Shown here piece by piece: positions 12,613-13,165 of a DNA stretch of 64,000 nt. Under the pieces are notes generated by a model. The model was not told the DNA's origin, ran no database searches, and saw nothing but the letters and a program-made list of their open reading frames with translations. Position numbers and translations under genes: made by a program. Numbering within the stretch: the first letter of the stretch is position 1; every line of letters begins with the position of its first letter. Origin of the DNA: Escherichia phage OLB35. Location: the sequence record MH992122.1. One strand, written 5' to 3'.

Positions 12613-12642
12613 ATAGTAACACACCATCATCTTTATGTAAAC
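12613..12642 (-). promoter_or_regulatory. early promoter for the ipI-like gene
   Basis: minus strand GTTTAC (12637-12642), 18-nt spacer, TACTAT (12613-12618); inverted repeat GATGAT/ATCATC. Confidence 0.45.
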
Positions 12643-12732
12643 TGTTTTGTGAAATTATTTTAGATCTTCGGCCCAATCCATCATCCTTATGTAAACTGTT
12701 TTGTGAAAATTATTTTAGATCTTCGGCCCAAT
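12624..12732. repeat. tandem duplication (about 55 bp x 2) of the 57B 3' end plus promoter -35 element
   Basis: CCATCATC(T/C)TTATGTAAACTGTTTTGTGAAA(A)TTATTTTAGATCTTCGGCCCAATC occurs twice in tandem. Confidence 0.75.
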
Positions 12733-13165
12733 CTAGTTTTAAGGGTTCTTTGTATTCACGGTCGAGAATAACCGGAATAGCTACATCACCACTGAATGAT
12801 AGTTGGCCAACGTTATATGATAACGTTATATGTGGAGTGTAGTCGTCGAAATCATGAGTAGCACCTAAAGCTCGTGCGTACTGATGACGACATCTAAGAT
12901 ATTCGGAATCAAGAACTAAAACCAGTACAGCGCCGTCATCGGTTTTCCATACCTCAAGGTGTCCTGATTCGGCAACAGAATAACTACCACTAGATGTAGT
13001 ATATGGTATGTTTACACGTGAATAACAAATTGTCGAATGAAGCTTTTCACGTGGTACTGGATTAGGAATTCTTAATTTGCGCTGGAGGTCTTCCAGCGCA
13101 TCAAGTGTTAATTCCGAAAATTTAGCTGCGACGTAGAGGCCTTGTGAAAAGTCCTCAAATTTCAT
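12710..13165 (-). CDS. 57B: gp57B, 2H-phosphoesterase (Acb1-like anti-CBASS)
   Basis: 151 aa; two H-x-T/S motifs (HSTICYS, HITLSY) typical of the 2H fold; position upstream of 57A and gene 1 as in T4. Confidence 0.7.

Follow-up and report, generated by a model that had tools for sequence, protein, structure and literature searches.

The window, i.e., the whole 64,000-nt stretch of Escherichia phage OLB35 that was analysed (MH992122.1), belongs to a Mosigvirus, an RB69-like T4-type coliphage. Its DNA is 98–99% identical to the Mosigvirus genomes RB69, CCU7 and Shf125875, the closest relative over 24 kb being CCU7 (98.1% identity), and the gene order tRNA.4–ipI–57B–57A–1–3–2 is common to the window, RB69 and T4. 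The phage collection used for all these searches did not include the window's own genome. The locus considered here comprises gene 57B (acb1), its neighbours ipI and 57A, a promoter/stem-loop cassette between acb1 and ipI, and a short tandem duplication that takes in the end of acb1 and part of the cassette (Table 1). The stop codon of 57A overlaps the start codon of acb1 (TAATG). The coding sequence of ipI shows no difference from that of CCU7.

Table 1. Features of the acb1 (57B) locus in the window, in order of position.
Feature	Positions	Strand	Description and basis
ipI	12291–12578	(-)	Internal protein I (GmrSD nuclease inhibitor family); Pfam PF11634 IPI_T4, E 1.1e-49; phrog_4363
Stem-loop between -35 and -10	12608–12632	(-)	Arm AGATGATGG, loop TGTGTTA, arm CTATCATCC; RNA fold
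Promoter-like site	12613–12642	(-)	Sigma-70-type (T4 early-type): GTTTACA, 17 nt, TG-n-TACTAT; consensus scan
Repeat copy 1 (ipI-proximal)	12624–12677	(-)	54 nt, non-coding copy of the acb1 tail, with an AT-rich spacer; phiC120/JK45-type allele
5' stem arm of copy 1	12624–12632	(-)
Functional -35 of copy 1	12637–12642	(-)
DWAEDLK-stop of copy 1	12655–12678	(-)
Mini-ORF made by the junction	12655–12684	(-)	9 codons, MMDWAEDLK-stop; repeats the Acb1 lid peptide
Repeat copy 2 (57B-proximal)	12678–12732	(-)	55 nt, true last seven codons and stop of acb1, with an AT-rich spacer; RB69-type allele
Orphan 5' stem arm of copy 2	12678–12686	(-)	GGATGATGG
Orphan -35 of copy 2	12691–12696	(-)	GTTTAC
acb1 (gene 57B)	12710–13165	(-)	CDS of 151 aa, ATG start; ORF list; anti-CBASS 2H phosphoesterase by homology
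Catalytic motif 2	12824–12832	(-)	His112-Ile113-Thr114 (T4 H113/T115); CAT ATA ACG in the sequence
Catalytic motif 1	13031–13039	(-)	His43-Ser44-Thr45 (T4 H44/T46); CAT TCG ACA in the sequence
57A	13165–13395	(-)	Tail-fibre assembly helper, upstream of acb1; Pfam PF17594 (GP57), E 2.4e-24
Gene 1	13400–14134	(-)	dNMP kinase, on the same strand; E 4.4e-96

When positions 1–24500 of the window were compared with RB69 and CCU7 in 500-bp bins, a fine-scale mosaic became apparent, in which CCU7-like bins (0–3 mismatches) alternate with bins that are equally distant from RB69 and CCU7. The mosaic includes a short RB69-like patch of ~0.7 kb (12678–13400), and the block 9001–9500 of the window is missing from RB69. 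In RB69, one more gene sits between 57B and ipI, directly behind the cassette: RB69ORF156c, a "hypothetical protein" (1835–2161 of the RB69 stretch compared) that proved to be an internal head protein (phrog_2667, E 8e-39), the N-terminus of which (MKTYQEFIAE) resembles a capsid-targeting sequence. Other internal-protein cassettes adjoin ipI in Shf125875, KAW3E185 and JK45.

The acb1 product matches the Pfam family PF23474 (Acb1) with an E-value of 7.4e-59 (198.1 bits for a cut-off of 27 bits; residues 8–149 on positions 1–144 of the 144 in the profile), as well as the Acb1 structures of Erwinia phage FBB1 (PDB 7T26/7T27; E 3.5e-59, residues 9–148). In alignments, it is 100% identical to gp57B of RB69 and CCU7, 86% identical to that of T4 and 64% identical to the FBB1 construct over 140 residues. 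In T4, gene 57B encodes Acb1 (Hobbs et al., PMC9117128), the catalytic HxT/HxT tetrad of which consists of H44, T46, H113 and T115, while Y12, W74, F107 and W147 are involved in base stacking, E141 contacts the adenine and residues 145–152 form a C-terminal lid (PMC9117128). This whole list of residues is present in the OLB35 protein, where the numbers are those of T4 minus one: H43, T45, H112, T114, Y11, E140 and W146 are invariant across T4, RB69, CCU7 and FBB1, W73 and F106 are the same as in T4, and the lid (LDWAEDLK) is intact and identical to that of RB69.

An earlier note, made from the sequence, had recognised a 57B/Acb1 orthologue here and singled out its HST and HIT motifs. Both motifs are read in the sequence and align with those of the T4 and FBB1 Acb1 proteins, which, along with the Pfam and 7T26 matches, bears this identification out; the catalytic histidines, whose loss the note had named as grounds for abandoning it, are kept in the alignment to characterised Acb1 proteins. 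The assignment of ORF 12710–13165 to Acb1, made by homology, is thus secure, and a 2H phosphoesterase fold is predicted for its product from the 64% identity to chain 7T26_A over 140 residues. By the same homology, the product would be a metal-independent 2H phosphoesterase, expected to act on 3'3'-cGAMP, cUA, cAAA and similar CBASS signals that contain adenosine, which would be opened 3' of this nucleoside; cleavage would be carried out by the HxT/HxT tetrad and CBASS would be disarmed as a result. We infer this Acb1-type activity from the 86% identity to T4 Acb1. Acb1 itself is already characterised, and the OLB35 protein is identical to the deposited RB69 protein.

Between acb1 and ipI, the promoter scan returned only one good site, TTTACA–17 nt–TACTAT (-10 extended by a TG), which is a consensus match only. 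The stem-loop lying between its -35 and its -10 folds at -10.5 kcal/mol (z -2.96) and is conserved in relatives, and the sequence upstream of the promoter is AT-rich (AAAATAATTTCACAAAACA). On the coding strand, the cassette thus reads: stop codon, TTTCACAAAACA, GTTTAC, GGATGATGG–tgtgtta–CTATCATCC, TG-n-TACTAT, AAGGA and ATG. According to an alignment of the spacers, the full cassette occurs once, right after the 57B stop, in RB69, CCU7, Shf125875, KAW3E185, phiC120 and JK45, with the RB69 cassette standing before ORF156c, while T4 carries a diverged form of it, also once. The scan for canonical intrinsic terminators returned no site, and the stem-loop is not followed by a U-run. A promoter annotation is absent from the T4 records, and our search of the literature on an ipI early promoter returned nothing specific.

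Such an arrangement recalls the promoter-early stem-loops (PeSLs), which comprise the stop of the preceding gene set in AT-rich DNA, a sigma-70-like promoter, a stem-loop, and a Shine–Dalgarno sequence with a start codon (Arbiol et al. 2010, PMC2839356). The stem-loop is often flanked by the -35 and -10 boxes, which is a described subclass, and PeSLs are located in hyperplastic regions, where relatives differ by indels of whole ORFs (PMC2839356). In the acb1–ipI cassette, we observe the -35 and -10, the AT-rich upstream sequence, the stem-loop, and the bounding stop codon and Shine–Dalgarno/ATG; ORF indels among relatives are found there too (the insertion of ORF156c in RB69 and others nearby). 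The element therefore fits a PeSL-type regulatory cassette, as predicted from its sequence.

The duplication was detected by Tandem Repeats Finder as an array at 12624–12733 (period 54, 2.0 copies, 96% matches, score 206), and both blocks were recovered by a separate repeat search (offsets of 54 and 55). Moreover, DWAEDLK-stop is translated from both copies, i.e., from 12710–12733(-) and from the ipI-proximal one, so that exactly seven codons and the stop are duplicated. These three results confirm the claim of the earlier note that the last seven codons and the -35 are tandemly duplicated (12624–12732). The span 12624–13165 given in the note comprises the gene (12710–13165) and, downstream of it, a copy of the repeat. 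On the coding strand, Asp145 of acb1 is the first codon of the repeated unit, which then takes in the acb1 stop, the AT-rich spacer and GTTTAC and closes with the final nucleotide of the 5' arm GGATGATGG. The copies stand head to tail, the microhomology at the junction amounts to 1 nt (12733/12678), and one breakpoint falls at the boundary between the 5' arm and the loop of the stem-loop (12623/12624). Only two differences separate the copies, T/C at 12632/12686 and a run of A3/A4 at about 12651/12706. Two occurrences of the 19-nt core GTTTACATAARGATGATGG were counted in the window, vs. zero expected from shuffles, which is far beyond chance.

The unit begins within the codons of the lid, and the 57B-proximal copy retains the acb1 stop. 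Since this native stop is kept, the protein is unaltered: the heading of the earlier note, which placed a duplication at the 3' end of the gene, holds for the gene tail, which is duplicated, but not for the protein, which remains 100% identical to RB69 gp57B. Read-through extending Acb1 into a second lid copy was ruled out, as the copies are 55 nt apart and the second DWAEDLK is out of frame. As for the mini-ORF made by the junction, a Shine–Dalgarno sequence at a usable spacing was not evident at 12655–12684(-), and this ORF is probably meaningless. The note had further proposed that the duplication supplies the promoter of ipI, a claim that is not supported by the comparison with single-copy relatives, T4 included, where the cassette is already complete. 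Because these relatives hold the same cassette, the promoter is older than the duplication. The promoter scan yielded no -10 partner for the upstream -35 (12691–12696), so that all that is gained with the duplication is one -35 and one stem arm, both of them orphans. Native sequence is kept over 43 nt upstream of the ipI promoter and over 31 nt 3' of acb1. Given that both flanks are preserved and that the orphan -35 is devoid of a -10, we expect no functional effect of the 54-bp duplication, which most likely changes nothing and is probably neutral.

Among the 40 best relatives, 36 span 1055–1056 bp over this region, vs. 1110 bp in the window. The four exceptions are two RB69 records (1429 bp), in which the extra gene lies between 57B and ipI, and LF82-9 and AV111, which are also of single-copy length. 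An 87-nt query across the junction was matched as two overlapping pieces on one and the same 56-nt stretch in all the best 30 of 153 related phage records; the duplication was found in none of these best 30, and a genuine junction match would have come first among the 153. Likewise, a second copy of the 57B tail was not found in the 153 records (153 places), a 25-mer across the junction had no match in IMG/VR, and no comparable tandem repeat was found in the corresponding 25 kb of either RB69 or CCU7. With a 16-nt junction pattern, which is too short for this purpose, the matches listed from IMG/VR, metagenome and genome contigs were all due to chance, with at least 9 mismatches over the 19 flanking positions. 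The 54-bp duplication is thus in all likelihood real, and private to OLB35 among these records, and it is a marker that separates this isolate from the 153 sequenced relatives.

Other rearrangements of a similar kind were observed in the same hyperplastic stretch of the window. A second private tandem repeat (8375–8699; period 175, 1.8 copies, 96% identical) has a unit made of the last ~22 codons of a 105-aa ORF (8626–8943(-); RB69ORF146c family, phrog_18312), followed by the downstream promoter/stem-loop cassette and its RBS; RB69, CCU7 and TU01 have this unit only once. In the upstream copy of the 175-bp repeat, the -35 is a consensus one, TTGACA, vs. GTACAA in relatives, and the 29-nt filler at the junction had no match in the phage collection. 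A third copy of the cassette is present at about 8199–8250. Recombination of cassettes also yielded a chimeric 55-aa ORF (8199–8366(-)): its 19 N-terminal residues are those that begin frd.3 (MAKVSIDVVDYEYTEEVIR, encoded likewise in 7925–8152), and it continues as RB69ORF145c-like sequence into a copy of the promoter cassette. Finally, two 92-nt direct repeats (11813–11903 and 12193–12284), each including a promoter/stem-loop cassette, an RBS and codons 1–9 of tRNA.4, flank a 380-bp cassette (11904–12192 between the repeats) that is absent from RB69 and CCU7, another private rearrangement. The 77-aa ORF found there (GTG start, 11909–12142) combines, with a broken frame, parts of two families of internal head proteins, its middle being Ip7-like (phrog_2667) and its C-terminus resembling a KAW3E185 gene (phrog_7673). 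A capsid-targeting N-terminus (MKT...E) is missing from it, a 32-aa ORF that begins with MKRAELIL at 12219 lies in another frame, and it is probably a dead internal-protein gene.

Considered as a whole, the locus is best explained, and in our view with good confidence, by an intact RB69-like acb1 followed by a private and likely inconsequential duplication stemming from an out-of-register join. The segment formed by copy 2, 57B and 57A differs from RB69 at a single position out of 723, copy 2 alone showing no difference from RB69 and KAW3E185, while copy 1 and the rest of the cassette correspond to the phiC120/JK45 allele, except for one indel in an A-run, and include the linked site 12594, which lies outside the repeat. 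Both variants that separate the copies are natural alleles. The partners of the join would have been two Mosigvirus haplotypes in a mixed infection, one contributing an RB69-type 57A–57B segment and the other a phiC120/CCU7-type cassette–ipI segment; the join itself would have been illegitimate and out of register, with 1 nt of microhomology and one breakpoint at the boundary between hairpin arm and loop. Such a two-haplotype join is the most likely origin of the duplication. It is also the simplest one, because the substitution that distinguishes the copies is a population allele linked to site 12594. Sites informative on the haplotypes are very few, with two in the repeat itself and some ten on its sides, and in such a fine-scale mosaic a haplotype switch at a particular place is little cause for surprise. 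Moreover, the A3/A4 difference between the copies concerns the length of a homopolymer, where sequencing errors are typical. A clean two-parent mosaic, with RB69 on the right and CCU7 on the left, was upheld only in part, the mosaic being fine-scale and the RB69-like patch limited to ~0.7 kb.

The breakpoint located exactly at the boundary between the 5' arm and the loop would also agree with a duplication that had arisen within a single genome, by replication slippage or template switching of a polymerase stalled at the cassette hairpin, the copies having later diverged or one of them having been converted through homologous recombination with another phage. PeSL stem-loops are reported to block polymerases in sequencing reactions (Arbiol et al., PMC2839356), and T4 readily makes tandem amplifications, for which short microhomologies serve as the sites of recombination (Srikant, Guegler and Laub 2022, PMC9391042). 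However, the T at 12632 vs. the C at 12686 is an allele that pre-existed in the population and is linked to the phiC120-type site 12594, and we regard an origin by slippage as viable but less likely.

A k-mer of 55 is common in de Bruijn assemblers, and the period (54/55 nt) and total length (110 nt) of the array match this value. At face value, the duplication might therefore be an assembly artefact, due either to an overlap of ~55 nt between contig ends, or between the ends of a circularly permuted "circular" contig, that was concatenated untrimmed, or to a chimeric join in a mixed stock. The homopolymer indel (A3/A4) among the copy differences and the lack of the junction in any other public genome (25-mer in IMG/VR; best 30 of the 153 records) would agree with such an error. 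Yet, k-mer overlaps are exact, while two differences separate these copies, of which the substitution is found at the site of a natural allele instead of at random. In addition, the nearby 175-bp tandem duplication, which is clearly unrelated to a k-mer, and the 92-nt flanking repeats indicate that the genome has undergone real rearrangements. We thus deem an artefact improbable, even though an assembly error at the 54-bp repeat is worth excluding before the sequence is used.

Still less plausible is a functional duplication, which would supply or strengthen the ipI promoter or tune the read-through from acb1 to ipI, either by a -35 acting as a decoy or by another hairpin arm. PeSL stem-loops can attenuate transcription (PMC2839356), and an alternative fold of -18.3 kcal/mol is possible, in which the sole 3' arm is paired with the added 5' arm; this fold was rejected, being no better than those of shuffled sequences (z -1.4). 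The complete promoter found in all single-copy relatives and the want of a -10 in the extra copy also speak against a function, as does the fact that no other record of the 153 (best 30 inspected) has the duplication, which gives no sign of selection; the idea is very hard to sustain. Finally, the copies could hardly be flanking repeats left by the precise loss of a gene cassette akin to the RB69 internal-protein cassette, a view suggested by ORF156c at the same position in RB69 and by the repeats including gene ends that flank cassettes elsewhere in the window, but rejected as recombination between flanking repeats leaves one copy instead of two, no second 57B tail exists in the 153 records and ORF156c of RB69 is not followed by a 57B tail.

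Going back to the out-of-register join, one may ask whether it belongs to a broader pattern. The 54-bp repeat, the 175-bp repeat (8375–8699) and the chimeric cassette (11813–12284) could be three fresh scars left when co-infecting Mosigvirus haplotypes recombined out of register at promoter/stem-loop cassettes and the hairpin served as the breakpoint, a proposal that we put forward tentatively and with more doubt than conviction. If true, the three scars would provide a natural snapshot of imprecise intermediates of PeSL shuffling in an anti-defence island (Acb1, IPI and other internal proteins). The 54-bp repeat and the two neighbouring rearrangements illustrate how, in hyperplastic regions of T4-type phages, imprecise products of recombination accumulate at the cassettes around anti-defence genes. 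The biological weight of the 54-bp repeat is small, as both flanking genes and the sole complete promoter are left intact.

With respect to known systems, the gene itself is very close to T4 Acb1 (gp57B, NP_049750.1; 86% protein identity) and to RB69 gp57B (AAP76056.1; 100% protein identity), both of which are also encoded between 57A and ipI. The HxT/HxT tetrad, the stacking aromatics, the equivalent of E141 and the C-terminal lid are shared by the three proteins, and the OLB35 locus differs from those of T4 and RB69 only in the 54-bp repeat 3' of the stop, the protein features being alike. The FBB1 Acb1 (7T26/7T27) is more distant: both HxT motifs align with those of the OLB35 protein, but it has F and Y where T4 and OLB35 carry the residues W73 and F106 (OLB35 numbering), and the alignment with its construct stops short of the last three residues of the OLB35 protein.

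The duplication resembles the segmental amplifications of T4 (PMC9391042) in being a head-to-tail repeat with short junction homology in a T4-type genome. In contrast to these, whose units are kilobases long, are selected for gene dosage and have microhomologies of 2–10 bp (typically 6–10 bp), the OLB35 unit is 54 bp in length, has no gene inside and shows an even shorter microhomology (1 nt). With the PeSL cassettes (PMC2839356; Comeau et al. 2014, PMC4122927), the OLB35 cassette shares its architecture, its hyperplastic location and the occurrence of insertions exactly there. According to their description, separate PeSLs recombine with each other and whole ORFs are thereby inserted, deleted or replaced, whereas in OLB35 part of a PeSL and a gene tail are repeated in tandem with no gene between them, and the junction, with its single nucleotide of microhomology, is illegitimate, unlike homologous PeSL recombination.
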